A stretch of DNA of 38,583 bases from Promethearchaeota archaeon (GTDB lineage: Archaea; Asgardarchaeota; Lokiarchaeia; Sigyniarchaeales; SOKP01), in NCBI GenBank assembly GCA_013375475.1, contig JABXKD010000034.1:1-38583 (forward strand). Direction: 5' to 3'. The position numbers and the translations under genes are program-made. This document shows, one piece after another, positions 276 through 30,498 of the stretch; positions within the stretch are counted from its first letter, which is position 1, and each line of letters begins with the position of its first letter. The notes beneath the pieces were generated by a model. That model ran no database searches. It was given only the letters and a program-made list of their open reading frames with translations, and was not told where the DNA came from.

Positions 276-866
276 TTGAAGGATATGAATTTGGGAAAAA
301 AATATCTCACCATAGCAGTAGTAGTTATCCTTTTAATTATTCCAATTTTTTTTGGTGTTTACATTGATTTACTAATCGTAAATGAATTATCCTTAAGTGC
401 AGTGGTATTCCTGCTAGTTGGCTTTGCCGTTCTATTGGTAGTAGGAAAAATGATGGAAATTTTTGTGTATAGTAAAACGAGTAAAGAACTAATGAAACAA
501 CACGACGTTATTAAAGCTTTATTGAATGGAAATGATATAAAGGTGTTGTTAATTTTCTTCCCTTTAACCATGATAATGGAAGAATTCATTTTTCGCTATT
601 ATCTCATAGGTGTATTTTTGTACCAGTTAAATGTAGGTATTTTATTAGCTACTATAATTTCGAGCGTGATATTTTCACTATATCACCTACATATATGGTT
701 TAGATTTAAAGATTTAAAAATATTGATAACTTATCTTATAACTTCGTTTCTACTGGGAATCTATAACGCGCATATTCTTTTAACGCTTGGAATATTTGCA
801 TGTGTAATAGTTCATATCATTTTGGTCTTTATCTTGTATTACAGTCTTTACAAAAAACTTTCTTAA
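276..866 (+). CDS. CPBP-family (Rce1/Abi, CAAX protease-like) intramembrane protease
   Basis: Multiple TM segments, EEFIFR and FSLYH motifs. The last motif (VHIILV) lacks the usual HxxxN Asn. Start may be ATG at 285. Confidence 0.8.
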   Translation: MKDMNLGKKYLTIAVVVILLIIPIFFGVYIDLLIVNELSLSAVVFLLVGFAVLLVVGKMMEIFVYSKTSKELMKQHDVIKALLNGNDIKVLLIFFPLTMIMEEFIFRYYLIGVFLYQLNVGILLATIISSVIFSLYHLHIWFRFKDLKILITYLITSFLLGIYNAHILLTLGIFACVIVHIILVFILYYSLYKKLS

Positions 867-5344: not shown

Positions 5345-6832
5345 ATGAGCTATAAATTAGCAAATGATAAAGATTTAGAAGCAATGATTGGTATTGTAGG
5401 CAAGGAGTACGCCACCAATAACAAGGCAATTACAGCGTCATATCTTTCCAAATCTGTAATGGGATTAGAATCACAAATTCCAGATATCGTCGTACGTCCT
5501 AAATACATAGAAGAGATTCGTAAAATACTACTTTACTGCTCTGCAGAAAAAATCGCTGTCTCACCTATTTCAGCCGGATTATCTGGCGGTTTTGCGTGTC
5601 CAACTATTAAGCCTGCTGGAGTTATGCTTGATTTAGGTAGAATGGATAGAATTATCGAAGTTGATACAGAAAATCGATACGTTGTAGTCGAACCGGGAGT
5701 CACGATTGGAAAGCTTTGGGCTTATATGCACAAAAATTATCCAGAGTGGGCTCCTCCCGTACCAGACGGTGCTCCACCAGCCTCTACCGTAATGGGAGAT
5801 GCTATCGATCGAGGATTTTCCCTCTACACTAGCTCCGTTGGTCCACAAGGTGATAACTTTATGTGCGGTGAGATAGTGTTTCCAAACGGAGATATTGTGC
5901 GAACAGGTTCGTGGGCATTACCTTTTGCGAAACCATTCTATAAATATGGACTAGGTCCAGATATCTGGTCCTTTTTAATGGGTTCACAAGGTACTCTTGG
6001 CGTAATGACTAAAGTCGCAGTCAAAATATATCCACATCCAAAATTTAAAACTGTAGTTGTATGGGGTATGTCCAATCCTGAAGATATGCAGAACCTAACA
6101 TTAGAAATTGGAAAGCAGGAATTTGGAATTGCTCACAACACCGTTATGGTTCAAGGAGGGAATTATCCTTTAGTAATGGCACGTTGGCCAAAGGATAAAG
6201 TTCCTCACGATTACGAATTCTATGAAGAGTTAGGAATTAGTAAATGGTGGATGAATTGGGAGTGCTGGGCACAAACTCAAGAGGAGTTAGATTATGTAGT
6301 TAATAGAATCAATAAAATGGCTGAAGATTTCAAGAAAAATAGAGCTAAAGACCCTGATAGTATAAAACCTCAGGAACTACATCCCAAACAAATCGCAAGC
6401 AGATTGAAGAAACCCAATAAAATTGCGGTCCCTTATGCTTTTTGGGAGGCTGGATTTTTATTCATTACTTTCTATACCCCCTGGAATGAATGTGCCCATT
6501 TTGCGAAAATGTATACGGCTGCAATGAAGAAATACGGTTTTCCAGAAGTTATGTGGATTGCTAGTATTGAGCGTTGTAGGCAAGCAATTTGCATGCCAAT
6601 TATTTGTTTCGATAGCACAAAACAATCAGATTTTGAAAAAGTTCAAGAGATGAATAGAGAAACAACGGAGTACGCACTTAAGCAAGGGTGGTTGAATTAT
6701 CGTCCAGATCCATACATCCACGCACCTCTCACTTATTCTCAAGCAGGAATGTATTGGAAATATTTGAGAACGATGAAAAAGATTTTTGATCCTAATATGA
6801 TAATGCATCCTGGGAGGCTTGCTCTTCCATAA
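5345..6832 (+). CDS. FAD-binding oxidoreductase (VAO/PCMH superfamily, GlcD/D-2-hydroxyacid dehydrogenase-like)
   Basis: PDIVVRP, VVVEPGVT, GSQGTLGVMTK, C-terminal FDPNMIMHPG. Confidence 0.9.
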   Translation: MSYKLANDKDLEAMIGIVGKEYATNNKAITASYLSKSVMGLESQIPDIVVRPKYIEEIRKILLYCSAEKIAVSPISAGLSGGFACPTIKPAGVMLDLGRMDRIIEVDTENRYVVVEPGVTIGKLWAYMHKNYPEWAPPVPDGAPPASTVMGDAIDRGFSLYTSSVGPQGDNFMCGEIVFPNGDIVRTGSWALPFAKPFYKYGLGPDIWSFLMGSQGTLGVMTKVAVKIYPHPKFKTVVVWGMSNPEDMQNLTLEIGKQEFGIAHNTVMVQGGNYPLVMARWPKDKVPHDYEFYEELGISKWWMNWECWAQTQEELDYVVNRINKMAEDFKKNRAKDPDSIKPQELHPKQIASRLKKPNKIAVPYAFWEAGFLFITFYTPWNECAHFAKMYTAAMKKYGFPEVMWIASIERCRQAICMPIICFDSTKQSDFEKVQEMNRETTEYALKQGWLNYRPDPYIHAPLTYSQAGMYWKYLRTMKKIFDPNMIMHPGRLALP

Positions 6833-6840
6833 CTGAGTAA

Positions 6841-6846
6841 GGAGGT
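6841..6846 (+). promoter_or_regulatory. Shine-Dalgarno site for the Fe-S protein gene
   Basis: GGAGGT 8 nt upstream of ATG 6855 in a 22-nt intergenic gap. Confidence 0.7.
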
Positions 6847-6854
6847 AAAAAAAA

Positions 6855-8216
6855 ATGGCTAAAACTGGAATGGAAAGATTAAAAGAATTGGAGAAGGAAA
6901 TATATAAGTGTATCCACTGTAAAGCGTGTAGGTTTGCTTATTCGGGAGAGCCTAGTAGAGAGGGAATAGGAGAATTCGCTGGAAAACAAGGTACAGTTCT
7001 TTACGAAGGAATGCTTGACGCGTGTCCTGCGGGAATAGAATACGGTTGGGAAGCGTTTTGGAATGCAGGAAAAATGTGGATTGCTCGTTCAATTTTAAGC
7101 GGAGATTTAGAATTTTCAGAAGAAGTAAGAGATGTCATTATGCCTTGCATTACGTGTGGGCAATGTTCTTCCCAATGTGAGAACAAAATACCCACAGTAG
7201 ACATAATTGAATCTTTACGAGCTGCTTGCGTTGAAGCTGGCATCCCTATGATCGAGAAACATCAATTAGTTGATAAGTTGGTCAAACAATTGAACAATCC
7301 TTACGGAGGAAAAGCAGAAGAGCGATTAAAGTGGGCAGAAGACGCTGGTTTAGGGAAGTATATCAACAATAAAAACGCGAAAATTGGATATTACGTTGGC
7401 TGTACTGCTAGTTATCGACAAGTCGAAGTTGCTATCGCTACAGCAAAAATTTTCGAACAGTTAGGAGTAGATTTCACATTAATCGAAGACGAAGTATGCT
7501 GCGGTAGCCCTTTCTTTAGAGTTGGCGCTGTTAACACTGGTCAAGAGCTAATGAACAAAAATCTAGAAAGTTTTAAGAATATGGAAGAAGTTTTATTTTC
7601 TTGCGCCGGTTGTTATAGAACTTTTACGATTGATTACCCAAAATGGATGACTAACGGAGAAAAACTTCCATTTAAGACAATGCACGCATTTGAGTACGTC
7701 TCTAATCTGATCAAGGAAGGAAAAATTAAATTCAAACCGAACAAAGAACTCAAAGGAAAAGTAGTCACCTATCACGATCCTTGTCACACGGGAAGACATT
7801 TTGCTCATGAGATGGAGCAATCTATGATCAAGGACTCGAAGAATTTAATGATGGACATGCGCAAAATCAATAAGATGATCGAAGATTGGTTCGATATTCC
7901 ACGAGTTATTCTGCGTAAACTTGAAGAAGATGTCGGAATTAAATTTATCGAGATGTATCGAATAAAAAATCATTCAATGTGTTGTGGTGCGGGTGGAGGA
8001 GTAAGAGCAGGATACCCTGATTTCTCATTACGGACTGCAAGTCTGAGATGTGATGAAGCAAATGCCGTAGGTGCAGATATTTTAACAACTGAATGCCCAT
8101 TTTGCTGGAGGAATCTAACTGATGCGAATGATCTCTACAATCATGGTATGCAGGTAATGGGACTTCTCGAAATGATAGCGACCTATAAATTATTAGATAC
8201 TACAAATTTAAAATAA
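6855..8216 (+). CDS. (Fe-S)-binding CCG-domain protein (HdrD/GlcF-like)
   Basis: CIHCKAC...CP and CITCGQC...C ferredoxin motifs, two CCG motifs, YHDPCH, ECPFC. Confidence 0.9.
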   Translation: MAKTGMERLKELEKEIYKCIHCKACRFAYSGEPSREGIGEFAGKQGTVLYEGMLDACPAGIEYGWEAFWNAGKMWIARSILSGDLEFSEEVRDVIMPCITCGQCSSQCENKIPTVDIIESLRAACVEAGIPMIEKHQLVDKLVKQLNNPYGGKAEERLKWAEDAGLGKYINNKNAKIGYYVGCTASYRQVEVAIATAKIFEQLGVDFTLIEDEVCCGSPFFRVGAVNTGQELMNKNLESFKNMEEVLFSCAGCYRTFTIDYPKWMTNGEKLPFKTMHAFEYVSNLIKEGKIKFKPNKELKGKVVTYHDPCHTGRHFAHEMEQSMIKDSKNLMMDMRKINKMIEDWFDIPRVILRKLEEDVGIKFIEMYRIKNHSMCCGAGGGVRAGYPDFSLRTASLRCDEANAVGADILTTECPFCWRNLTDANDLYNHGMQVMGLLEMIATYKLLDTTNLK

Positions 8217-8290: not shown

Positions 8291-9496
8291 TCAGTAGTTA
8301 GAAAGCATTTCTAAAAACGCTTCCATTCGCGTCATAATTTGTCCTGGTGCGAAATTTCTTTCATCTACACAATCTACATCTAAATGGATCAGGGGAATTC
8401 CTATTTTTTGAAGAGCATCCTTAAATAATACTCTTGCACCTGCAGATTGACGACATCCCCAATGGGCAGGATTTATCGCACCATCAATTTTGTAGTCTTG
8501 TGCTAATCGCGTAATTACTTCGAGTCGTCTATCAGCCGGACCAACTAAGGGGTGAGTCATTATTCGATTAGCAAGGCTCCTTAAAGGCTCATTTTCATCC
8601 ATAGGTTCCCACCAAATGTGATTAAGTTCGTCAATTACAATTTTTGCGCCATAATTTTCTTCTAAAATTCTCAAAATATCAGTTTTAAACTGAATTCTAT
8701 TTTGGATCCACATTAATCGGTATTTTTCTTCTAGTAAACCACTAATGGTGTTATCGACTCGAGATTTGAATTCGTCTCTGTATAATTTTACGACTTCAAC
8801 GCCTTCTTCTGTTCCTAATAGCATTAAAATCATTATGAAATTTTTTAAGTCGTTTGAGTTTGCAGGGCTTGGGACATTCATACATAGATTGTTTAATTCT
8901 ATTAAGTAGTTTCTTGCTTCATTGTTGTATTTGATTGACTTTTTAAGCATATCGTAATCTAAATTACGACCAGTTTCGTTATCGATGTATTCAATCATCT
9001 GTTCGAACTGGTTTGTTAAATAATCAACAGATTTTGGAGTTACCTCAATTGGAATGTTTAAAATAAAGACTTCCTTATTAAAGATTTCTCCAATGCGTTT
9101 TAACGCTTTAACACCCCCATTACAGGGAATGCTTGCCCCAATGAGCACATCTGGTTCTGGTAGGAGTCCATCCATAGCAGCGCCTATTATTGTTCTATGG
9201 TAAGAGCAGCTATCTGTGGAAAAACCTTTACTCTCAGAAATGTCAAGATATTTGCTTGACATTCCTGTACTCGCGAGCATCGCTCCAAAAAATTCAACAA
9301 ACATACCAGAAACGCCCATAGAACTGAGAATTTCGTAAGGAACGAAAACAGTTGTCCAACCAATTGACCAATTATCGTCAAATATCCGCGATCCAATTCG
9401 TGCTACTTCATAAACAAATTTTCTACGCGCAGTAGTCTTTGCTTCAAGTTTAGCTTTTAGGCTTGCTTCTAGTTGTGTAAAGTATTTCTCTAACAT
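8291..9496 (-). CDS. 2-hydroxyacyl-CoA dehydratase family subunit (HgdA/FldB/BcrB-like)
   Basis: DSCSYH, PCNG and WGCRQ cluster ligands; TRMEAFLE C-terminus. Confidence 0.88.
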   Translation of the reverse strand: MLEKYFTQLEASLKAKLEAKTTARRKFVYEVARIGSRIFDDNWSIGWTTVFVPYEILSSMGVSGMFVEFFGAMLASTGMSSKYLDISESKGFSTDSCSYHRTIIGAAMDGLLPEPDVLIGASIPCNGGVKALKRIGEIFNKEVFILNIPIEVTPKSVDYLTNQFEQMIEYIDNETGRNLDYDMLKKSIKYNNEARNYLIELNNLCMNVPSPANSNDLKNFIMILMLLGTEEGVEVVKLYRDEFKSRVDNTISGLLEEKYRLMWIQNRIQFKTDILRILEENYGAKIVIDELNHIWWEPMDENEPLRSLANRIMTHPLVGPADRRLEVITRLAQDYKIDGAINPAHWGCRQSAGARVLFKDALQKIGIPLIHLDVDCVDERNFAPGQIMTRMEAFLEMLSNY

Positions 9497-9529
9497 GTTA
9501 ATGGTTACTATTTTAATCCACCTTTTTTT

Positions 9530-10588
9530 TTAACTTTTAATAATTTCAGAAAAAGCTTCTATTCTTGTTCTAATTTGATTAATGTTCCCTAAACCCCCAT
9601 CGCTTTCAATAAATAACACATTTAAGTCCTTTTCATTCAACAAAGTTTTCAAAGTGGGGACATCATATAAACAAGTATCACAAAATTTTAATGAATGGTA
9701 AATAACTCCATCGACATCGAATTTTTTTGCTATATTATAAATTTTTTGTACTCTCTCCTTTATTTGCATCATTCGAGCACATGGAGTTCTATTTAAATAA
9801 GCTTCACTTAAGGATGCCATTAGATCGTGAGAATCTTTTATAACTAGATCGAAAAATTTGCTGCCAGTGCAGAGATCTTCGTAAACCACATTCAATCCAA
9901 TCTCTTCTAAAAACGAGATAAAGTCGATTTCGTGTAAAGGACTTCCGGATAAAAGTATTCGAGGGTTGCTATTTGTAGCCCCTTTTGTAGTTTGCAATTT
10001 TTTACTTTCTAAAATACCCTGGGTTTTATCGTTCCAGATTTTTGGTTCAGTTTTGAAGAAATCTGAAGTAAGCTCCATTAAATCTGTTCCTGATATCGAG
10101 GGCGGATTTTCTATTCTTAAAGAATTTAATTGGTTGTATATTAAACGAGATTCTTTAAAAACTTTAATAGCATTCTTTATGTCACTATCATTGATAGTGA
10201 TTGATGCGTGTTTTTCCAACGCAGTTTTAAGCTTATTAAACTCCTCCCTAAGATAGTTCGCTCCTATCGATAACTCTCCCATAGGAATGTCTAAAATATA
10301 TATAAATTTCGTAGGAACGTACCTTTTCCAAACATCGTGAAGGCGTCGCATGGCATCGCAAGAATTTACGAAGACTAATCCCTCAAGAAAGTCGTAGCCT
10401 CCATTAATCGCTACATCAATAGTAGATTTTACAAATTGACAAAAGTTTGGATGAATATACGAATCTGCGTTTTGAGGAGGTTCAGAATGACCAATGATGC
10501 GATAAGGAAGGAATCCCGCAGCATAAATTAGCTCTAAAGGGGTATAACTACACATCCACCCAATATATTTCTTATCCGTTGTTATAAT
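9530..10588 (-). CDS. 2-hydroxyacyl-CoA dehydratase family subunit (HgdB/FldC/BcrC-like); probable ATT start
   Basis: CSYTPLELI.AAG, FCQFVK, NSCDAMRR, KFCD, TRIEAF. Conserved KKYIGW lies upstream of the track ATG (10555). AAGGAG SD sits 9 nt before ATT at 10588. Family call is secure; the start is uncertain. Confidence 0.85.
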   Translation of the reverse strand: MITTDKKYIGWMCSYTPLELIYAAGFLPYRIIGHSEPPQNADSYIHPNFCQFVKSTIDVAINGGYDFLEGLVFVNSCDAMRRLHDVWKRYVPTKFIYILDIPMGELSIGANYLREEFNKLKTALEKHASITINDSDIKNAIKVFKESRLIYNQLNSLRIENPPSISGTDLMELTSDFFKTEPKIWNDKTQGILESKKLQTTKGATNSNPRILLSGSPLHEIDFISFLEEIGLNVVYEDLCTGSKFFDLVIKDSHDLMASLSEAYLNRTPCARMMQIKERVQKIYNIAKKFDVDGVIYHSLKFCDTCLYDVPTLKTLLNEKDLNVLFIESDGGLGNINQIRTRIEAFSEIIKS

Positions 10589-10837: not shown

Positions 10838-13800
10838 TTGACAAACGTAGAAAACAAGACGGCATATCCATACATTACGGAATTTAAAAAAGAGCCATTT
10901 AGATCTTTTGTTCTGACAAAAAGAAAGGATATTGGAAACTTTTATTTAAGTAGTTACGAGAGAGTTTTGGAGGTATATCAACTCTATAATGAGGGCTTAC
11001 TTAATGAAGCTTCTTTAAATTTGGAAAACATTTATTGGTTTCTTTTGCTTAGGAAATATATCAAACAAAAAACAGATGTCTTCCGTGAAGAATTTTTAAA
11101 TTTCATAAAAAAATGCGAAGTTGAGATTATCGAAAAAGATCAATTAGGTTTTAAATCATCTCCACACTCTTCAAAATCACCCGATATTTGGGTTTTATAC
11201 TACGCGTTAGCTAGCTTAGAGCTGCTGGGTATTTTAAACGAGTATCTTTCCTCTAAGGGACAGGATGTATTAGTTCGACAAATAAAAAATTTCATTTATG
11301 CGCATAAGAGAAATAATGGATTTTTGCACTGCCTTGATAAAAGTTGTGAGGAATGTAATAATGGTCCTGTAGCAAAAACTTTTTATTATGTAACAGAAAG
11401 TCTTCTACTTCTCGGTATCGATGTAAGAGTATTCAAGGAGCAGTTTCGTTCGTATTTAAAAGAGAGGAAAAAGGATTCCTCGATATTGTTCAAGCTTTTA
11501 AGCCTTAAATTCTTTGATTTAGATTCAGATGTAAGGGATAAAGAAATACAATATTTCTATCAATTTCAAAAAGAGAGCGGTGGTTTTAGTTTTATATTCG
11601 AAGATGAAGATGTTGATACAACCTTTTGGGTTGTCAATATTCTCCACATTTATTCTTGGTTAATTGATTATAATCCTGCGAGGATTTATTCTTTTATCAC
11701 AAAAAAACTGGATGATATTTTTAGAGAAACTTCAAGCTGGAATCTAATAATTCTAAGAGAAGTAACTCAATTAGTGGTATTACTCTCTATAATTTGGAAC
11801 CGATTTATTGAAGAAATCGAGAGAGTCGTATTTAAGCATTTAGAAGCGAATAATTTCATCGACTTAAACCAAATTAAAAATACATTTGGATTAAAACATG
11901 GTTTAGAGGAAATAGTATTGTATATCAATTTAAATTACACATTTACTTTAAAAAAAGTTGATAATACATTAGAATTCAACCAATATATTCAAAATTTAAG
12001 TCAAGGTAAAAGAGCTATTATTGAAGAAATTTATGAACAATTAAATGATAATAGCGTAATATCGCTCTCTGATATTTTCAAGAAATATAGAGGTTCAAAT
12101 GGAGAACAAATTTTAAGATTAAGAGAAGACATTTTTCCAATAATTCAAGATTTGATAAGTAATCATTTTTTTGAAGGGGAAATTAGAGCTAAAAAAGCGT
12201 TTTTATTTAAAACTAAATATTATTTTTGTTTGGATTACCTATTCAAAAAGATTCTTATCGTTGATAATGAAATTAATACAGAAAGGTTATACGAAGAAAA
12301 ATCAAAGTTAAAGGAAATTAGGAACGATATTTACAACATGACATTAAAACTAAAAAATACTATTCCACAAATTAGAGAAGAGATTGAATCGTATCTTTTA
12401 ATAGACGAAATTGATTTTGCTAAAGAAAGGTTAAAATTTGTGTTGCGAAATTCATTAATGGAAGCTGATTTCTTAAACGAAAATATCGAATCCTCATTTA
12501 ATCAAGAATTAATCTACATTAACCTACAAGCAACCCTTGGCGCTGAAATATCTCAGTGGAATAAATCATATTCTCTACTACAAAACGGATTGAAGGAATT
12601 AAATAATTATCTCCAAGAAAGAATCCAAGAAAAGGAAAGCTTAAAAAAATACAGTATTGTATTAGATGAACTGGATTCTAAGATTTACGATATTCAAGAT
12701 CAAATTAACCGTGAAGTAGATTCTTTTAAGAATTACTTAGTAGAATTAATGGATAAGGGTTATAACGAGGAAAAGTTTGATCTTATTATTCAAGCGTTTA
12801 ATAGAATATCTCAAAGTGTTAGTAAATATGATAAGGCTATTTACAAAATATCACACCAAATTACAACAAAAGAGAAGAAAATAGCTAAAAACCACAAGAA
12901 AATAATCTATAAATGGATTGATTTCAAAGAAAAATTTGATTCCACATTTGCTGAATATACTAATGGATTTCAATTTTTTAACGAACTAAACAATAACATC
13001 GGAAATGTCAAAGATATTGTACAGAGTGGAATATTAACAATAAAAGACAATGCGAAAAACCAAGTAACTAATAATCAGTATCAAGACGCTTTTAATACCA
13101 TCAAAATGGAATCTGAAATTTTGCTAAAAAAGGAAAATGAGGAAATTCATAAATTAAAGCAATTAGTAAAGAAAAATACTAGTTTTAAGCAAAAACTTTT
13201 TCCTCTTTATAAGTACCTCGATGAGAAACTAGATAGCTTAGAAGAGAACATCATTGAACTTATAGCTGACCAAGTTCAAATTCTGAAAGAAAAAGTTATT
13301 GAAGAGAGAAAACGAGCCAAAGTTGAAGATTTTGACAATTTTGTTTCGAATACAATCCAATTTTTCAAAGATAAATTGGAAAAATACAAATTCAGTGTCG
13401 ATCAAAATAGAGTAAACAAAATTCCGGATGTTATCGGTGGTTTTGACACAATAGTTTTAGAATTTAATGATTATAACAAACAATTTTCTAAAAAAATTAG
13501 TAATCTAAACGGAACTGTCGTTAATCCTGACGAAAATTCAATTAAAATAATTCAATGGGAGAAATTTGATGAATTTTTAACCAAAGAGGTAAATAATCTA
13601 AAGGATGAATATGTAAACAAAATCATTTCTAACGAAATTTATCTTATGAGTGAGGAAGAAAATACAGATAAAATTGACATTAAGAAACTTGCTGATAAAT
13701 TAAAACTTAAGTGTAAAACAATAATTCCAAGAATCAAAGATTTAATAGAAGTTTCAAAATTACAGGGAGAATTACTTGAAGATAAAAAAGAGCTTATTGT

Positions 13801-15250
13801 TCATACTGAAGCATATCATAAGAACAAAGAATTAAAAAATTTCACGGAAAATAGAATTTTAAAACAAACTCAAGAAAGAATAGGGCATTTATTAGCACTT
13901 TACGATTCTTGTATAAAAAATAAAACATTAGGAGTTAACTCATTAGAAATTCAGAATAGAATTAAAGATTTGAGCGACTTTAAGGAATCTATTAATAATA
14001 AATTTAATTCGAAGATTAAAGAATTAAATGTGGACGAAAAAAGAATAGAGATAATGGAGTTAATCAATAATATCAACGCAATTATTAACAACAACGAATT
14101 AGCAATAGAAAAAATAGAAGAAAATTTAGCTTTGTTTAAGGATTTAGAATCTTTCATAGGGAACGAGTATAGTGCTTTAAAAATAGATATAGAACACTTG
14201 TTTGTTAAGGCTGCCGAAGATATTGAGAAAATCGAGCTTCACGGGAAAATGAAAGAAATCCTCGATAGTAAAAAAGAGAAAGTCGATCTAAAGTTAAAGC
14301 AGGCGGATGTTAAAATCGAGGAGAAGTTGAAAAATGTAATTACTAAAACTTATGAATCAAAAAAATTTGAAGCCGAAGCAAGAGAGTATTATTTCGAGAA
14401 GAAAAACGAAATCAAAAAATTAGTGCAAGAAAAAGTAGTCACTATTGAAGAGACCATTAATTCATTAAAACTTGAAACTGATCGTGGAAAATTACTAGCT
14501 ATGATTAACAAAAATACAATTCATCTAAGTCAATTATTAGGTACTCTTCAAGCGCGAGTTGAGGACTATATTGAAACAGAGCAATTTAAAAGAGCGTATC
14601 TACAAGTAAATAAAAAAAATAAATATATCGAGCAAGAAATTAGAAATTCAAATAGAAGAATTAAAGATATATTTAAGGCATTTAATAGAAATTCTAATGA
14701 TTTTGAAACTAAAAATAAACATATTATCAACGATTTTGACCGTTTTATCAAAGAGTTCAGCGATTTATTGCAGGAAAAAATTAAAAGCTTAGAAGAATTA
14801 ATAGTTAAATCGTACGTAGAAATGGCAATAAAAGCTGTAGCAAACGAATTTCTAACTCTGAGCTTTTTACAAAACGAATTAAAAATGAAAAAGCCACTGA
14901 TTCAGACGCATCTTATCTCTCTTATTAGTGCTGGTAAGTTAACTGGTAAATATGATCCTCAGATCGGGTTATATTACGAAAATTTGGAGGTATTAAAATC
15001 ACTTGATGAGAATGAATTAGAAGTAATTAAAAAAATGAATTTTCGAGTGTACCTGTTTATGAGACGTTTGAAAAACCTCGCAAACCAATACGGGTCAGTA
15101 ATCGCTTTCTTTGCCTCAATTATTACAATCTCTTATTACTTATTTAGAATTAGTGGAGAAAATCCATTAACAATTATGATTCCAATCGTTCTAACATTAG
15201 TGGTACTTGCATACCTTCTTTTCAAGAAGAAAAAAGATGATAAAATTTGA
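10838..15250 (+). CDS. Large multidomain protein: prenyltransferase-beta-like repeats, PCI-like winged helices, coiled coils, C-terminal double TM anchor
   Basis: GF...PDIWVLYYALASLELLG and QKESGGF...DVDTTFW repeats; I..LA.KL......I..LI...KL.G motifs; heptad-rich middle; two hydrophobic helices followed by KKKK. ORF certain, domain calls inferred. Confidence 0.65.
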   Translation: MTNVENKTAYPYITEFKKEPFRSFVLTKRKDIGNFYLSSYERVLEVYQLYNEGLLNEASLNLENIYWFLLLRKYIKQKTDVFREEFLNFIKKCEVEIIEKDQLGFKSSPHSSKSPDIWVLYYALASLELLGILNEYLSSKGQDVLVRQIKNFIYAHKRNNGFLHCLDKSCEECNNGPVAKTFYYVTESLLLLGIDVRVFKEQFRSYLKERKKDSSILFKLLSLKFFDLDSDVRDKEIQYFYQFQKESGGFSFIFEDEDVDTTFWVVNILHIYSWLIDYNPARIYSFITKKLDDIFRETSSWNLIILREVTQLVVLLSIIWNRFIEEIERVVFKHLEANNFIDLNQIKNTFGLKHGLEEIVLYINLNYTFTLKKVDNTLEFNQYIQNLSQGKRAIIEEIYEQLNDNSVISLSDIFKKYRGSNGEQILRLREDIFPIIQDLISNHFFEGEIRAKKAFLFKTKYYFCLDYLFKKILIVDNEINTERLYEEKSKLKEIRNDIYNMTLKLKNTIPQIREEIESYLLIDEIDFAKERLKFVLRNSLMEADFLNENIESSFNQELIYINLQATLGAEISQWNKSYSLLQNGLKELNNYLQERIQEKESLKKYSIVLDELDSKIYDIQDQINREVDSFKNYLVELMDKGYNEEKFDLIIQAFNRISQSVSKYDKAIYKISHQITTKEKKIAKNHKKIIYKWIDFKEKFDSTFAEYTNGFQFFNELNNNIGNVKDIVQSGILTIKDNAKNQVTNNQYQDAFNTIKMESEILLKKENEEIHKLKQLVKKNTSFKQKLFPLYKYLDEKLDSLEENIIELIADQVQILKEKVIEERKRAKVEDFDNFVSNTIQFFKDKLEKYKFSVDQNRVNKIPDVIGGFDTIVLEFNDYNKQFSKKISNLNGTVVNPDENSIKIIQWEKFDEFLTKEVNNLKDEYVNKIISNEIYLMSEEENTDKIDIKKLADKLKLKCKTIIPRIKDLIEVSKLQGELLEDKKELIVHTEAYHKNKELKNFTENRILKQTQERIGHLLALYDSCIKNKTLGVNSLEIQNRIKDLSDFKESINNKFNSKIKELNVDEKRIEIMELINNINAIINNNELAIEKIEENLALFKDLESFIGNEYSALKIDIEHLFVKAAEDIEKIELHGKMKEILDSKKEKVDLKLKQADVKIEEKLKNVITKTYESKKFEAEAREYYFEKKNEIKKLVQEKVVTIEETINSLKLETDRGKLLAMINKNTIHLSQLLGTLQARVEDYIETEQFKRAYLQVNKKNKYIEQEIRNSNRRIKDIFKAFNRNSNDFETKNKHIINDFDRFIKEFSDLLQEKIKSLEELIVKSYVEMAIKAVANEFLTLSFLQNELKMKKPLIQTHLISLISAGKLTGKYDPQIGLYYENLEVLKSLDENELEVIKKMNFRVYLFMRRLKNLANQYGSVIAFFASIITISYYLFRISGENPLTIMIPIVLTLVVLAYLLFKKKKDDKI

Positions 15251-15270: not shown

Positions 15271-17433
15271 TCAGTCGTAACCCATTACAAAGTGTACTTC
15301 GTCTGCAACCTTCTTTAAATAACCTAAACGGCAAGCTTGGTTAAAATGGGTATAATATTTCTTTTCAATTATCTCTTCTTCTTCAGCAAATTCTTTAAAT
15401 TCTGAAAGAGGCATTTTTCCATTTTCGCTATAAGTTTCAGCAATTTTAATTAACGTTTTTACATTTTTATTTAAATACATTTTTCTTTCTGTCATTTTCT
15501 TATTTTTCTCTTTTTGATTACCTTTTAATTTTAATATAGACCTTTTTAGATTCGCTTCGTCCAATCTTAAAACATCAGAATAAAAAGTTACTCCTGAATC
15601 TTTGAACAATTGGAACTCTTTACTCTGGACAAAATTATCCAGTTCAGAGATTATTTCCTCAATAGAACGATCTGCAAGCAATTCCTTTTCTCTCTCACGC
15701 CTTTCATGGTAGTTTTTAATTAAATCCAATTCTGAAACTACCGTTTGTTCTTTTTTAAAACAAATCTCTTCTCGATCTGCAATTTTACAAAGATCTAATT
15801 CCTTAGTATGGGACAAAACCCAATGCATAGCAGATTCTTTTCTATCGGCAGCTTTATAAAAGGGAACATCAATAGTTTCTCGAGCTACGAGTAAATAACA
15901 TCGACCTGGACTGTGTCTTCCTGTTCTTCCGCGTCTTTGAATTAATCTTATCTCAGAAGGTACAGGTTCGTAGAAGATTATTGCGTCAACATTGGGAATG
16001 TCAAGCCCTTCTTCTGCAACACTTGTAGCAATTAGAACATCTATTGCGCCTTCTTTAAATTGTGTTATTATTTCTATTTGGTGATCTTGTGAAAATCCTA
16101 AATCGTTAATTTTGCTAGCCTGACCTATGAATTTTTCTACATTTAATTGAGTTCCAAAGTGATCTTTAAATTTATCCTTCAATAATTCTGCCATTTCTCG
16201 GTATTGAGTAAAAACAATAATTTTAGTGCTTAAATGGTTTTCTAATTCTTCTGATACAATAGAAAATAACTTTTCAATTTTAGGATGAGCGTAATCATCG
16301 ATTTTATTCTGAAGGAAATTATTCTTGATAAATTTAAAGTGCTCTGAGTTAACAATTCTTTTAGCAGAAAGTATTTCTTGGCCAGATTTATACTCTAATT
16401 TTTCTAAAAATGTTAGAAATAGGGTTACGTTCTGAGATTCTAATAAATCTTTTCCGTGAAGCAAAGAGATAAAGCTAGAACAAAATGAGTATATCGATTG
16501 GATATTTAACGACCCTTCATTTACGACATCAATAATCCGAGGTGATTGAAAATAAAGTGCGCTTTGATACTCTTCTTCAGATAACTCTGGTAAATAACCA
16601 TTTTCATATTTTAGAGAGAGAGTTAGATCTCGCGAAATTCCCAAGAAATCCGATTTAGAATAATATCGCTTGCTCGGAGGAATTAATTTTTTCTCAATAA
16701 AATATTGAATTAGTTTCTCAAATAAAGTATACCAAATGGCACTTAACTCAATTACTTTAATGGGTAAATCGACAAACTCTAAATAAGTATCAATATCGTA
16801 TATATATTGTTGTACGTCTTTATCTTCGTAGGTTTTGAACAAAACATTCTCGATGTATAAATTGTTACATAATTGCTGGATGCGAAGATAACTTTTTCCA
16901 GGTGAAGCGGTTAATCCTAAAATGAGAGGATCTTGGCAAGTGTTAATATATTCTGAAGATATAAAACAATACGCATAATTTCCCCTTGTTCTGTGCGCTT
17001 CGTCGAATATTATTAGGGAAACACGCTTTAAATCGTATCTACCTCTTTCAATATCGTTTTTAATAACTTGAGGCGTAGAGACGATTATTTTGGAGTTTTT
17101 AAAGTGAAATATTCTTTTCTCAGGAGATACTTTACCCGTAAAGGAAATAATTGAATCGGAGTTGATATTTAAAAATTCCTCACAGGACGCTTTATGCTGA
17201 GAAACTAAAGGGCGGGTCGGGGCAAGAATAATAATCTTGGATTCTGGATATTTTTCCAAAGTTTTACCTATGAGTAAAACCCCTATAATTGTTTTTCCTA
17301 AGCCAGTTGGTAAAACTATTAAAGAATTTATTCCTTTACATTTGTTAATAATATTTTTTTGGTATTGTCGATAAAATACTCTGTTCTTTTTCAAAAAAGG
17401 TTCGTTAAAATATCCAGAAACTTCACTAACCAT
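15271..17433 (-). CDS. hef: Hef/FANCM/Mph1-family SF2 helicase
   Basis: LPTGLGKT, DEAH, GLTASPG, FTQYR, ATSVAEEGLDIP, QRRGRTGR. Confidence 0.92.
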   Translation of the reverse strand: MVSEVSGYFNEPFLKKNRVFYRQYQKNIINKCKGINSLIVLPTGLGKTIIGVLLIGKTLEKYPESKIIILAPTRPLVSQHKASCEEFLNINSDSIISFTGKVSPEKRIFHFKNSKIIVSTPQVIKNDIERGRYDLKRVSLIIFDEAHRTRGNYAYCFISSEYINTCQDPLILGLTASPGKSYLRIQQLCNNLYIENVLFKTYEDKDVQQYIYDIDTYLEFVDLPIKVIELSAIWYTLFEKLIQYFIEKKLIPPSKRYYSKSDFLGISRDLTLSLKYENGYLPELSEEEYQSALYFQSPRIIDVVNEGSLNIQSIYSFCSSFISLLHGKDLLESQNVTLFLTFLEKLEYKSGQEILSAKRIVNSEHFKFIKNNFLQNKIDDYAHPKIEKLFSIVSEELENHLSTKIIVFTQYREMAELLKDKFKDHFGTQLNVEKFIGQASKINDLGFSQDHQIEIITQFKEGAIDVLIATSVAEEGLDIPNVDAIIFYEPVPSEIRLIQRRGRTGRHSPGRCYLLVARETIDVPFYKAADRKESAMHWVLSHTKELDLCKIADREEICFKKEQTVVSELDLIKNYHERREREKELLADRSIEEIISELDNFVQSKEFQLFKDSGVTFYSDVLRLDEANLKRSILKLKGNQKEKNKKMTERKMYLNKNVKTLIKIAETYSENGKMPLSEFKEFAEEEEIIEKKYYTHFNQACRLGYLKKVADEVHFVMGYD

Positions 17434-23940: not shown

Positions 23941-24663
23941 ATGAATGGTTTCCTAAGATCAATTAATACTATGAAAGAACTGAGTGAATTAGAACCATTA
24001 TTCGAAAGTCGTACTATAAAACCGACATTTGAATATGTTCATGTTTTATTATCATTATTCATATTTGGAGAGAATTCAGAAGGTATTGGGAGATATCGCC
24101 TTAAAGAAGAATTGCAAATTGGTTCGGGGACAGCAAAATCTTTATTTAAAAAATTAAAGGATGTTATTAAATTCATCATGGTTCCAAGCGAAGGAAAGGG
24201 AAGTAATACTGAGATTCAAAGAAGAGGCCATGTATTAACCGAAAAAGGTTATAAATTTTTAACAAAAATTAAAAAAAAAATTCCATTATTAGAGAAAGCA
24301 AACTTGAAATTTTTAAAAGAAATCATAATCGATCTAGAGAATGGTAATCCATATTTTTGTTTAGTTAAGAACGCTGCAAAAAATATTAAAGATGGAATTG
24401 AACAAAGAGATGCCGCAATAAAGATTAATGGTTCCGGAGCGACATGTCTTATCTATAATGGGAAAGAAATATATTTTCCAACAAAAGTAAATAACCTAAA
24501 TGAAAGAGAGAAAGTCAATCAAGATACTTTCGATTATTTTAAAACTCAGATTGATAACGCAAATGTGAAATTCGAACCTAACGATGTAATTATTATTGGT
24601 TCTGGAGATAATCCACAAAAATCACGATTGGCTACCTTAAACGCGGCTTTAACTTTATTATGA
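23941..24663 (+). CDS. DUF4443 domain protein with N-terminal winged HTH
   Basis: IGRYRLKEELQIGSGTAKSL HTH, GHVLTEKG, GIEQRDAAIK..GSGATCL. Start may be ATG at 23971. Confidence 0.8.
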   Translation: MNGFLRSINTMKELSELEPLFESRTIKPTFEYVHVLLSLFIFGENSEGIGRYRLKEELQIGSGTAKSLFKKLKDVIKFIMVPSEGKGSNTEIQRRGHVLTEKGYKFLTKIKKKIPLLEKANLKFLKEIIIDLENGNPYFCLVKNAAKNIKDGIEQRDAAIKINGSGATCLIYNGKEIYFPTKVNNLNEREKVNQDTFDYFKTQIDNANVKFEPNDVIIIGSGDNPQKSRLATLNAALTLL

Positions 24664-25163
24664 TTTTAGGAATTAGAGACAAAATGAGATTTGAAAATGA
24701 TATAGTTTTTGTAATAAGCGAGGATTTAATAAGTAATTTTGATAAATGTATTGAGAAAGTCCACCCAAACGAAGCTTGTGGTTTCATTTTTGGTAATATT
24801 CAAGAAATTAATGATAATGGTAATTTTAAATATAGATATTATAGTAAAATTTTTCAGTGCATCGAATCTAGTATGTCAGGTCCTGCGTCGTTTCTAATGA
24901 ATAATGATAAAGAAATATTAGAGTCTAATATCATATCTAAAAAAAAAGGTCAAAAACTATTAGCTATTTTTCACTCGCATCCTATGGGGGCACATCCAAG
25001 CAGTATTGATAAAAAATATATGAAATACTATCACAATTGTGGAATAAAGAAGTTTACACATTTAGTTTGGATCATAATTGATTCTAAAAATAAGCATATT
25101 AATGGATTTATTTACTTGGACAACAAAATAACTCAGATAAGCATAGAAGTAAGTAAAGATTAA
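24660..25163 (+). CDS. JAMM/MPN+ metalloprotease (Mov34/M67 family)
   Basis: PNEACG...FHSHP....PSSID complete JAMM motif; ATGA overlap with the upstream gene. Confidence 0.9.
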   Translation: MILGIRDKMRFENDIVFVISEDLISNFDKCIEKVHPNEACGFIFGNIQEINDNGNFKYRYYSKIFQCIESSMSGPASFLMNNDKEILESNIISKKKGQKLLAIFHSHPMGAHPSSIDKKYMKYYHNCGIKKFTHLVWIIIDSKNKHINGFIYLDNKITQISIEVSKD

Positions 25164-25236
25164 ATTTATTTTGCATAAATCTATTTTAAAGTGAGTAAGA
25201 TTAAGCCCAAAATTTTGCTCTATCTCGTTATGATAT

Positions 25237-25890
25237 TTATTGAACTTGATTATAACCCGACTTGTCAATGGTACAAATTTGAAGAGCAAATCCTGAAGCC
25301 GCGTCTCTTTCTCTAGAACTTGATATTGCTGTTTTTATTAAGTTGATTCCGGCAGATTTTGTCATATTTGGTTTCCAATCTGCTTCTAAAACACCAATAG
25401 AGAACGGAGAACCTGAACCAAAAGATATAAAATTCTCTTCTTCGTATAAAGTTCCAAGCAAATCAACCCCATAAAGGATTCCATCTTTCTTTTTAAGGGA
25501 ATATCCCCCAATAATCATCATGCAGAGAAAGTACGACCGTCCACTAAATAGGATATTTCTTGTCAAACTTGCGATATATTGAGGATCTGGTACCTTTTCC
25601 TGTTCTATTTGCTTCAAATTCGAGAGTGCTGTAAGTTGATTAACAACATATTGACAATCTGCCACCCCCCCAGAGATTGTAGCGCATGTATAGTCGTTAA
25701 TTTTGAATAGTTTTTGAGCGGTTTTAGTGGCGACAGTGTAACCCGCGGTAGCTTGGGATTCTGTACCAATTACGACAGCATCCTTGACAATTATACCTAC
25801 TGTAGTTGTACTTGATTTAATTATTCTATTTACAGTATCTTCGTCTAAGTTCAGCTTATTGGGATTATTTTCCATCATTCTCTTCAACAA
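25237..25890 (-). CDS. psmB: 20S proteasome beta subunit
   Basis: Propeptide then TTTVGI, Lys33-equivalent (QKL), SGGVAD, GSGS, RDAASG. Confidence 0.93.
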   Translation of the reverse strand: MLKRMMENNPNKLNLDEDTVNRIIKSSTTTVGIIVKDAVVIGTESQATAGYTVATKTAQKLFKINDYTCATISGGVADCQYVVNQLTALSNLKQIEQEKVPDPQYIASLTRNILFSGRSYFLCMMIIGGYSLKKKDGILYGVDLLGTLYEEENFISFGSGSPFSIGVLEADWKPNMTKSAGINLIKTAISSSRERDAASGFALQICTIDKSGYNQVQ

Positions 25891-29418: not shown

Positions 29419-30498
29419 TTAAAAAATATTAAAAACTAAAAACACTAGGATAATCGTAAGGGCATTATATACGCCATGAGTAATCATAACCGCTATTAAA
29501 TTTTCTTTTCTCCAATAATATAGTAAACCAAGTAAAAGGGAGATCGCGAAATAGGGAAAAAAGTTGAGGAGCAAGGAAATTACGAATACTGTCAATGATT
29601 CTGGAAGTAAGAATACTCCTATTAAATGAATTGATGAAAATATCAATGCCGTAAGTATAATTCCCCAGGTTTTGCCTAAATTACGGATTAAACCCTTTTG
29701 TAAAAACCCACGGAATAAAACTTCCTCAGATGTACCGATAATCACTATCATAATGATAACTAAAAAGACAAGACTAAGAATATCTGAAGATAGTATTAAT
29801 GCATCTACTTCACCAGGAGATCCACCTAGTTCCGAGACAATAGATACACCAAAAATTGCGGATAACAGAACTTCCATTACAAATGAAACGAAAAGAACTA
29901 ATAGTACTCCTACAACTGCAAATCCTAATCCAAGTAGAATCTCTTTTAAAAGCTGGATTTTATTATAACCCTTTGTAGTAAAACCTAATATGATTAATCG
30001 GTTACTGATATTTGGTCTTTCTAGATGTTTACCAACATACAGAAGTGGAACAATGAATAAAACTAATTCTATAAAAGAACTAAATATAATGAAATAGGGA
30101 TTAGCGACTGCATTAGATGCTTCTTCTATACTACCTGATAAAAATATAAATATGAATACGACCCCCAAAGAAATTATTTCCATAGCAGAAAATGCTGCAG
30201 CTGTTATCCCTATAGAAGCGCCGGCACCCCATAATTGTTTATCTTTTAAATTGAGGAGATCATCTTGATTAAGTCTTTTTTTTAGCAGTCTAGGTGCTCC
30301 ATAACTATAAAGTTGCTTGGAACTTTGACTCTTACGAGGCGGCATTCTCATATGGATGTTAATATATTGAAGATCGACGCCACATTTAATGCAATATTGA
30401 ATATTTTCAATTTGAGGTATTTTTGTTCCACAAATTGGACAAAAATCCCATTTCAGCTTACTTCGACTCAGTTCGCTAGAATTTTCTTTCTCATTCAT
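29419..30498 (-). CDS. CPBP-family intramembrane protease with N-terminal zinc ribbon
   Basis: CPICG...CIKCG, many TMs, EEVLFRG, FSSIH, HGVYN. Confidence 0.9.
   Translation of the reverse strand: MNEKENSSELSRSKLKWDFCPICGTKIPQIENIQYCIKCGVDLQYINIHMRMPPRKSQSSKQLYSYGAPRLLKKRLNQDDLLNLKDKQLWGAGASIGITAAAFSAMEIISLGVVFIFIFLSGSIEEASNAVANPYFIIFSSFIELVLFIVPLLYVGKHLERPNISNRLIILGFTTKGYNKIQLLKEILLGLGFAVVGVLLVLFVSFVMEVLLSAIFGVSIVSELGGSPGEVDALILSSDILSLVFLVIIMIVIIGTSEEVLFRGFLQKGLIRNLGKTWGIILTALIFSSIHLIGVFLLPESLTVFVISLLLNFFPYFAISLLLGLLYYWRKENLIAVMITHGVYNALTIILVFLVFNIF

Follow-up and report, generated by a model that had tools for sequence, protein, structure and literature searches.

Eukaryotic protein prenyltransferases are soluble heterodimers with a PPTA-repeat alpha subunit; their substrates carry C-terminal CaaX or CC/CXC cysteines, and conserved basic residues of the beta subunits (those of RabGGTase, also called GGTase-II, of GGTase-I and of FTase; Pfam family PF00432) bind the isoprenoid diphosphate. 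PCI subunits of the proteasome lid, the COP9 signalosome (CSN) and eIF3, for example RPN6/PSMD11 (PF01399), consist of helical repeats ending in a winged helix, and the UFM1 ligase scaffold DDRGK1/UFL1 (PF09756, PF09743), anchored in the endoplasmic reticulum (ER), has a long helix followed by PCI-like winged helices. The rods of spectrin, alpha-actinin, plectin and nesprin are built of spectrin repeats, three-helix bundles in tandem that are connected through continuous helices; both the nesprins, which are tail-anchored, and EzrA of Bacillus, which is anchored by an N-terminal helix, are membrane-bound rods. Tail-anchored golgins extend a long helical cytoplasmic rod from a C-terminal anchor and bear a binding element at its far end. 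Here we analyze a 38,583-nucleotide stretch of archaeal DNA (the window; contig JABXKD010000034.1 of Promethearchaeota assembly GCA_013375475.1, class Lokiarchaeia) and describe one of its genes, which joins a prenyltransferase-beta-like barrel, PCI- and DDRGK1-type winged helices, spectrin-like bundles and a C-terminal membrane hairpin in a single chain. Its features, all on the forward strand, are as follows.

10838..15250 (+): whole gene, 1470 amino acids plus stop, TTG start; open reading frame intact, length kept in homologues
10856..10909 (+): N-terminal peptide KTAYPYITEFKKEPFRSF, residues 7-24, highly conserved among 114 full-length sequences, with little structure in the model
10955..11725 (+): 12-helix alpha/alpha barrel resembling prenyltransferase beta, residues 40-296 (Pfam, AlphaFold2, Foldseek, VIA, profile)
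11327..11356 (+): candidate zinc knuckle H-C-x4-C-x2-C, residues 164-173, located in the loop that follows the second GF turn
11744..11962 (+): long helix and winged-helix-like unit WH-A, residues 303-375 (head model)
11963..12262 (+): winged helix WH-B of DDRGK1/PCI type, residues 376-475 (head model, profile)
12278..13660 (+): rod 1, residues 481-941, about four spectrin-like three-helix bundles (rod model, VIA)
12299-12637 (+): most conserved block of the protein, residues 488-600, the first bundle (114 full-length sequences)
13661..13807 (+): winged helix WH2 of DDRGK1/PCI type, residues 942-990 (rod model, VIA, profile)
13808..14836 (+): rod 2, residues 991-1333, about three spectrin-like three-helix bundles (rod model)
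14837..14980 (+): winged helix WH3, residues 1334-1381, a PCI-like module together with the preceding helices (Pfam, VIA, profile)
14987..15088 (+): short helices after the PCI-like module, residues 1384-1417, a basic juxtamembrane stretch (rod model)
15092..15223 (+): hairpin of two transmembrane helices, residues ~1419-1438 and 1443-1462 (Kyte-Doolittle peaks, rod model helices)
15224..15247 (+): cytoplasmic tail KKKKDDKI (sequence), its lysine-rich end kept in the consensus

We confirmed that 10838..15250 is a genuine, well-conserved gene. The list of open reading frames (ORFs) contains no antisense frame of at least 80 amino acids inside it, and the TTG start is consistent with the N-termini of homologues, whose consensus reads MTxVExKxAYPYIT. 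The upstream neighbor is divergent and the downstream neighbor is convergent, 20 bases away, so the gene stands alone; with these flanks, and with no neighbor kept across the deeper families, it is not part of an operon.

The N-terminal part of the protein is a barrel that, in profile and in fold, comes closest to the beta subunits of eukaryotic protein prenyltransferases. The original prediction had read such a barrel from repeats including LGFKSSPHSSKSPDIWVLYYALASLELLG (residues 103-131) and QKESGGFSFIFEDEDVDTTFWVV (residues 244-266), and these are not chance because the Pfam model Prenyltrans (PF00432) scores 34.2 bits against a gathering cut-off of 26.5. An AlphaFold2 model of the head (residues 1-485, 48 aligned sequences; predicted local distance difference test (pLDDT) 90.5, predicted template modeling score (pTM) 0.87) contains a 12-helix barrel at residues 40-296, a long helix at residues 303-338 and two winged-helix units. 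All 32 Foldseek matches to the head at E<=1e-3 were protein prenyltransferase beta chains, the best of them RabGGTase beta (6o60_B, E 1.4e-5, 20% identity), while terpene cyclases and thioester domains ranked lower. The VIA wide fold search, which is independent of Foldseek and covered 48,161 chains, returned GGTase-I and FTase beta subunits as its top five (Z 20.3-22.2 over 263-274 residues, root-mean-square deviation (rmsd) 3.2-3.8), with squalene cyclase (Z 16.6), class II terpene cyclases (~15) and thioester domains and glycosidases (~13-14) further down. Run against the PDB, a barrel-only profile found six distinct sequences at E<=1, every one a beta subunit, including RabGGTase beta at 2.3e-10 and GGTase-I beta at 2.4e-5. 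The barrel and these subunits have GGF-type turns and PD-x-x-S/T-x-x-A-L helix starts in common. Similarity to a 369-amino-acid PF00432 protein of the same genome was lower (hhalign E 2e-4); the whole protein had no match at E<=1 among PDB chain sequences, and an NCBIfam scan gave noise only.

We then considered the residues on which prenyl transfer depends in the described enzymes. In alignments of diverse members, the near-invariant barrel residues are W67, G104, F105, D116, S119, A123, H164, C165, C170, Q244, G248, G249, F263 and W264, so that D116, H164, C165 and C170 are the only Asp, His or Cys residues among them. H164, C165 and C170 are at least 90% conserved both in 31 and in 36 diverse sequences and belong to the H-C-x4-C-x2-C loop, which may bind a metal; three of the 31 (P0148, P0152 and P0154) have lost the motif and P0021 has lost its last Cys. 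The sequence of RabGGTase beta contains the motifs PDVCYSWW and DPFHT, which we take to hold its zinc ligands (D238, C240 and H290 in the rat protein). Mapped by repeat-motif register, the D-x-C position ahead of F263-W264 is variable in our family and is never Cys in 31 sequences, and unlike in the beta subunits no Asp, Cys or His is kept at the inferred zinc-ligand positions, the near-invariant D116, H164, C165 and C170 falling at other places. Nor did two alignments of diverse members reveal any near-invariant Lys or Arg in the barrel columns or a conserved basic pocket. The alpha-subunit repeat PPTA (PF01239) has two matches in the window's own genome, at 25 and 21.8 bits against a cut-off of 29.5, and the model gives sub-cut-off matches in two control archaea as well; no clear alpha subunit was found in the genome. 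The barrel also differs from the described beta subunits in its low identity to them (at most ~20%) and in its fusion to ~1170 further residues and a membrane anchor. Judged from these conservation patterns, canonical prenyl transfer by the barrel is unlikely, and the lipid- or isoprenoid-binding role that had been proposed for the head appears weakened by the missing zinc-ligand and basic conservation.

Between and beyond the barrel and the rods lie winged helices. AlphaFold2 models bear out the three PCI-like segments proposed from the sequence, at residues 405-451 (within WH-B), 943-988 (WH2) and 1338-1381 (WH3), and add a fourth winged-helix-like unit, WH-A, between the barrel and WH-B, which had not been listed. 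In DSSP notation (H, helix; E, strand), WH-A runs H303-338, E340-342, H343-350, H356-366, E371-375 in the head model; WH-B runs H389-402, E407-409, H410-420, H428-441, E445-453, E459-468; WH2 runs E945-947, H948-954, H959-971, E977-980, E985-988; and WH3 runs E1338-1340, H1341-1348, H1352-1364, E1371-1373, E1378-1380.

In profile and fold searches, these segments consistently resemble DDRGK1/UFL1 and the PCI subunits found in the proteasome lid, CSN and eIF3. Using segment profiles built from 35-37 diverse loci, we found the DDRGK1-UFL1 chimera 8b9x_A as the best PDB match of WH-B (E 1e-4) and of WH2 (6.7e-5), the latter followed by PSMD11/RPN6 (1e-3), DDRGK1 (1.1e-3), further PCI proteins, cullin-2, CSN1/2 and eIF3e/c. 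By fold, WH2 superposes on 8c0d_E of a UFL1/DDRGK1 entry (VIA Z 9.6, rmsd 1.7, 61 residues aligned, 20% identity). Pfam PCI matches WH2 in 16 of 35 members (E<=0.01) and Pfam DDRGK matches it in six of 35. Over WH-A and WH-B the PCI model matches three of 37 members and E3_UFM1_ligase two of 37, among them the window's own protein, in which residues 298-480 give a weak score spanning both units (16.9 bits, cut-off 23.2). Profile, fold and Pfam thus find DDRGK1/UFL1-type winged helices in WH-B and WH2, and the same segments also match generic PCI winged helices. For WH3, Pfam PCI matches 21 of 35 members at E<=0.01. VIA aligns residues 1228-1384, in which the last helices of rod 2 take part along with WH3, to PCI subunits of the lid and CSN (Z 8.0-8.4 over 109-124 residues), the best being the proteasome lid subunit 9e8o_X (Z 8.4, rmsd 3.5, 109 aligned). 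The profile of WH3 with its preceding helices matches RPN6 (E 0.085, ~100 residues aligned) as well as eIF3e and RPN7, a link to PCI subunits that appears weak but consistent. In contrast to described PCI subunits, our protein has several winged helices per chain, spaced by long rods, as well as a membrane anchor, and it has no known MPN partner or complex. An internal duplication of the winged helices or rods is unsupported, as profile-profile comparisons were weak (WH-B/WH2 E 0.0036 and WH2/WH3 E 0.0057, probabilities <10%; rod 1 against rod 2 E 0.031).

The helical tracts between the winged helices are real, as had been proposed, but they are better described as about seven spectrin-like three-helix bundles than as coiled coils. 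An AlphaFold2 model of residues 470-1470 (41 sequences, pLDDT 81.9, pTM 0.38) shows nothing but helices between the winged helices. Short helices of ~30 residues take turns with long ones of 62-74 residues, which is the pattern of three-helix bundles in tandem, connected through continuous helices, and not of a single long coiled coil. VIA aligned residues ~485-829 to alpha-spectrin repeats (1u4q_A, Z 13.8, rmsd 8.6, 302 aligned; 3edv_B, Z 13.7), and further rod matches were to beta-spectrin, plectin, Kar9, nesprin-2G and alpha-actinin (Z 9-13.8). Foldseek gave no match at E<=1e-3 for the 1001-residue rod model, its weak rows being mostly PCI subunits.

Hydropathy, the rod model and the sequence agree with the two C-terminal transmembrane helices, the KKKK end and the lack of a signal peptide that the original prediction had noted. 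Apart from a buried helix at residues 301-321, hydropathy peaks are confined to residues ~1418-1439 and 1442-1465; the 19-residue Kyte-Doolittle mean rises no higher than 0.78 within the first 60 residues, which argues against a signal peptide. Residues 1401-1470 carry a net charge of +7 with basic residues on both sides of the hairpin, so by the positive-inside rule the bulk of the protein and the KKKK tail should face the cytoplasm. These topology signals agree with the proposed cytoplasmic bulk held by a C-terminal hairpin anchor, an orientation that remains a prediction from sequence. All 132 homologues of 1400-1520 amino acids that we examined have a hydrophobic segment within their last 90 residues.

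We next asked how widely the architecture is distributed. A word-indexed protein search found 206 relatives, the best 120 of them at 47-96% identity and nearly all 1460-1504 amino acids long. Where these 120 are named, their source names read 'hypothetical protein', apart from three cases of 'prenyltransferase/squalene oxidase repeat-containing protein' and one 'conserved membrane protein of unknown function', and 13 have a precomputed PCI hit beside PF00432. Searching 1.84 billion representative proteins with residues 1-500 (phmmer) gave only 49 matches at E<=1e-3; 18 are 1417-1499 amino acids long, and the others are shorter and mostly start at their own first residues, which makes them fragment-like. 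Within the reach of phmmer, the head is therefore confined to this architecture. In the ESM Atlas, no cluster was retrieved other than the one to which the protein itself belongs (192 members, 'hypothetical protein').

We also ran a family profile of 31 diverse members on the 332 phylum genomes with a completeness of 80% or more, counting matches at E<=1e-8. Within the class Lokiarchaeia, 132 of 137 genomes matched (by family, f1 116/117, f3 10/11, f5 2/3, f6 2/2, f7 2/2 and f4 0/2), compared with one of 194 phylum genomes outside it, and none of those 194 has a full-length match. The lone outside genome (G307) has local matches to winged-helix segments only, within unrelated proteins of 459 and 293 amino acids. 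A single-sequence search, positive in 152 of 400 genomes, gave the same picture, and the window's own genome has one copy. The family is thus specific to Lokiarchaeia, found in nearly all members and apparently nowhere else. Length is conserved far better than sequence: 1417-1511 amino acids are retained down to about 16-25% identity, and full-length open frames of about 1440-1511 amino acids down to about 18-26%. At the N-terminus, the peptide KTAYPYITEFKKEPFRSF includes a PYITxFKK stretch conserved enough to serve as a search pattern, and it looks like a short linear docking motif; residues 1-20 have a pLDDT of 35-57 in the head model.

On balance, we favor the view that the protein is a cytoplasmic, membrane-anchored rod, a spacer or scaffold, that carries a non-catalytic binding head and docking modules. 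Near-universal occurrence in single copy, strict length with drifting rod sequence, a membrane hairpin and a folded head fit a spacer or scaffold that docks partners at defined distances from a membrane. It would be a housekeeping-type, single-copy structural protein whose rod is fixed to the cell membrane by the C-terminal two-helix hairpin; we know of no established internal membranes in these archaea. Outward from the membrane the predicted order is the PCI-like module, three bundles, the DDRGK1/PCI-type WH2, four bundles, two winged helices and the distal barrel. Because length is conserved far better than sequence, the rod would set a fixed distance. We infer that partner proteins dock on the winged helices, much as they do on those of PCI proteins and DDRGK1 in eukaryotic complexes, and on the conserved first bundle of rod 1 (residues 488-600), the best conserved surface of the protein, and that the barrel, as a non-catalytic head, binds a hydrophobic ligand or a peptide. 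The layout recalls tail-anchored golgins by analogy, although golgins, which are dimeric coiled coils, use short motifs to capture vesicles, whereas this protein would be a bundle rod with a folded barrel head.

Several observations weigh against this interpretation. The arrangement of the rods is uncertain, as the low pTM of the rod model indicates, and for helical repeats a VIA Z below ~13 may reflect arrangement alone, the best value here being 13.8. Since scores of that kind may arise from arrangement and the Pfam spectrin model (PF00435) has no match at E<=1 on the whole protein, we term the bundles spectrin-like and not spectrin repeats. The Pfam PCI model stays under its cut-off of 22 in the window's protein, at 16.9 bits for the whole chain and 20.4 bits for the WH3 segment. 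In the barrel, the catalytic positions were mapped through repeat register rather than by residue-level superposition, and the H-C-x4-C-x2-C loop together with D116 could form a different metal site, so that catalysis is possible. Finally, transcription of the gene has a weak hint behind it: two metatranscriptome runs, which come from two studies, contain four short contigs that align to 13007-13316 and 13903-14302, each with 1-6 differences, and carry-over of DNA is possible. The rest of the gene is without RNA cover in these contigs, which is uninformative.

The alternative that fares best, and which we nevertheless regard as unlikely, is a specialized version of the same scaffold: by analogy with spectrin, nesprin and alpha-actinin of eukaryotes, or with EzrA of Bacillus, the anchored rod would bind lokiactin or tubulin/FtsZ-type filaments through the head or the first bundle and link the membrane to the cytoskeleton. 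The rod's fold matches to spectrin, plectin, nesprin-2G, alpha-actinin and Kar9 (Z 9-13.8) and its membrane anchor speak for such a linker, as does its class-wide conservation in a lineage whose cultured members have, in the portion of PMC9834061 that we draw on, actin-filled protrusions. Pfam, however, identifies no calponin-homology, actin-binding or tubulin-binding domain and, as noted, no spectrin match; a three-helix bundle is a simple fold; and the window offers no genomic link to cytoskeletal genes. Compared with spectrin-repeat rods and EzrA, the rod is interrupted by winged helices and lacks a recognized actin- or FtsZ-binding domain.

We give little credence to a membrane-anchored transferase, in which the barrel would be an active, divergent prenyltransferase or other isoprenoid enzyme, with its metal site moved to the H/C loop and D116, and with its place relative to the membrane set by the rod. 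The closest relatives of the barrel by profile and fold are catalytic beta subunits, D116, H164, C165 and C170 are near-invariant, and the H/C loop lies between a GF turn and the next helix, where canonical repeats hold D-x-C (as judged by inferred register). Yet the canonical D-x-C...H positions are variable, conserved basic residues for a diphosphate are missing, three of 31 diverse members lack the H/C loop with the architecture otherwise kept, and the genome has no alpha-subunit match above cut-off. Other PF00432 barrels of the same genome reside in proteins with signal-like segments, so the fold also serves outside catalysis. Passages of PMC4915359 describe archaeal beta-subunit-like proteins and archaeal Rab-like proteins without prenylated C-terminal cysteines, and in PMC10933270, as far as the sections on Thor-Rab GTPases go, these too have no C-terminal cysteines and its authors did not find homologues of RabGGTase subunits in BLAST database searches. 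Table 1 of PMC4917890 gives prenyltransferases and CAAX domains as absent from Lokiarchaeum.

A bolder form of this idea would make the barrel a working module for recognizing or transferring isoprenoids, the closest prokaryotic relative of eukaryotic RabGGTase/GGTase beta, set on a membrane-anchored platform of DDRGK1/UFL1- and PCI-type winged helices; its chances seem slim to us. Were it true, Lokiarchaeia would have a membrane-proximal machine that lipidates proteins or captures lipidated or ubiquitin-like-modified ones, a prokaryotic analogue of ER-anchored modification scaffolds. It would contradict the absence of prenyltransferases from Lokiarchaeum as tabulated in PMC4917890.

Very improbable, in our judgment, is a scaffold ligase akin to UFL1/DDRGK1, an anchored winged-helix array that would recruit a ubiquitin-like conjugation enzyme to membrane-bound targets such as ribosomes, in the manner of the eukaryotic UFM1 ligase at the ER. 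The analogy draws on the chimera 8b9x_A as best PDB match of WH-B and WH2, on the superposition of WH2 on 8c0d, on Pfam DDRGK in six of 35 members and E3_UFM1_ligase in one or two, and on Ufm1 homologues reported, in the part of PMC12962969 concerned, from nine Asgard clades and identified with structural modeling. The winged-helix matches are nonetheless of the generic PCI type, which also covers RPN6, CSN and eIF3. The window's own genome, whose completeness by markers is 100%, yielded nothing at E<=0.001 to the Pfam models for Ufm1 (PF03671) and UFC1 (PF08694), although the UFC1 search is weak and matched no control genome either. A UFL1 N-terminal helix and C-terminal domain are lacking, and the barrel and spectrin-like rods have no counterpart in UFL1/DDRGK1. 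DDRGK1 itself differs in being N-terminally anchored and small (314 amino acids) and in needing UFL1, UFC1 and UFM1.

Scarcely credible is a tether in which the winged helices bind DNA or RNA and hold a chromosome, plasmid or ribonucleoprotein at the membrane: nucleic acid is a frequent ligand of winged helices, DNA-binding regulators are among the fold matches of WH2 (RbkR 5trd_B, Z 8.4; a CRP/FNR family protein, Z 8.0) and a Hef-like helicase is the convergent neighbor in 59 of 76 loci, but the strongest and most consistent matches are protein-docking PCI/DDRGK1 winged helices, the units are not notably basic (WH2 net +2, WH3 net -1) and the helicase is lost in most deeper-family loci (present in three of eight).

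The anchored spacer or scaffold that we favor bears on the biology of a group that includes the only cultured Asgard archaea and is used for reasoning on the origin of eukaryotic cell organization. Almost class-wide, in one copy, of fixed length and membrane-anchored, with modules whose best-known relatives are all eukaryotic, the protein is a concrete candidate for a membrane-associated organizer, be it a spacer, a docking platform or a cytoskeleton link, and its barrel bears on whether prenylation-like chemistry or prenyl recognition predates eukaryotes. The structural matches to toroid and winged helices that the original prediction called for were found, and the idea of a eukaryote-like Asgard architecture holds in that it is undescribed and not widespread outside Asgard archaea; its confinement to the single class Lokiarchaeia makes it an improbable direct ancestor. 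Because of that restriction, the family more likely shows how Asgard lineages recombine eukaryote-like modules than a direct ancestor of a eukaryotic machine. We found no description of this architecture in open-licence PMC papers and bioRxiv, although supplementary tables of orthologs or eukaryotic signatures could list the family, and a 2026 structural-clustering preprint has no mention of prenyl, geranylgeranyl, PCI, spectrin, UFL1 or toroid.

We compared the surroundings of the gene in 76 close loci (via a 14-sequence alignment) and eight loci of deeper families. The window has ~31% G+C, is archaeal, and also encodes ribosomal protein S8e, a proteasome beta subunit, HypA and Glu/Gln-tRNA synthetase. 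The convergent 720-amino-acid Hef-like DEAD/ResIII helicase (15271-17433, -) is present in the 59 close and three deeper loci noted above, an adjacency that probably reflects inherited gene order rather than a functional link. GlcD/GlcF-like genes (5345-8216 in the window) lie upstream in 41 and 48 of the 76 close loci. The pair of 2-hydroxyglutaryl-CoA dehydratase D-component genes directly upstream (8291-10555, -) is adjacent in only two of 76 and looks like a lineage-specific insertion. No conserved neighbor is common to all eight deeper-family loci, and the neighborhood in these loci did not yield a conserved partner. JAB and proteasome genes lie ~10 kb from the scaffold gene and within 10 kb of it in 18 and 12 of 76 related loci; this proximity of ~10 kb is the only basis of the proposed link to JAMM/proteasome genes.

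Some deep-branching genomes (families f5 and f7; genus g11 of f1) encode shorter paralogues in frames of ~1190-1340 amino acids, including L089:1414-5370, L090:1651-5361, L091, L092 and protein P0163. The PF00432 barrel recurs in P0163, L089 and L090, which also match PCI below its cut-off, and the barrel of P0163 carries a zinc-ribbon-like insertion. The C-terminal membrane segment is absent from all five shorter paralogues checked, which by their sequences look like a soluble version of the scaffold. In the lone outside genome, G307, which belongs to another Asgard class, the 459-amino-acid protein (L108:1459-2838, -) has HEAT-like N-terminal repeats by eye and a C-terminal match to the WH-A/B or WH2 profile segments, and the 293-amino-acid protein (L109:769-1650, +) has hydrophobic segments and a C-terminal match to winged-helix profile segments. 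PCI/DDRGK-type winged helices seem to be reused across several Asgard architectures.

The other PF00432 proteins of the window's own genome are the 369-amino-acid ORF (L078:1111-2220, +), which has a membrane helix at its C-terminus with an RRRR tail, and a 982-amino-acid frame (L079:1-2214, -). Both have an N-terminal hydrophobic signal-like segment and, going by these segments, are probably surface proteins, unlike the cytoplasmic giant. Two Rce1-like genes (type II CAAX prenyl endopeptidase, PF02517) lie in the window at 276-866 (+) and 29419-30498 (-); since the family is widespread in prokaryotes, they are probably unrelated to the barrel.

Within the gene, one contig of a DNA run joins position 12843 to 13759 and omits 915 bases. 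The shorter side of this junction is 21 letters only, with 15 foreign letters in between, and it is probably an assembly or strain artefact rather than a deletion variant. Elsewhere in the window, at 23941-25890, a DUF4443/PH0730-like gene overlaps a Prok-JAB (JAMM) gene (24660-25163) by four bases, with the proteasome beta subunit gene next, on the opposite strand; the group may be a small ubiquitin-like-modifier/proteasome cluster that has nothing to do with the scaffold.

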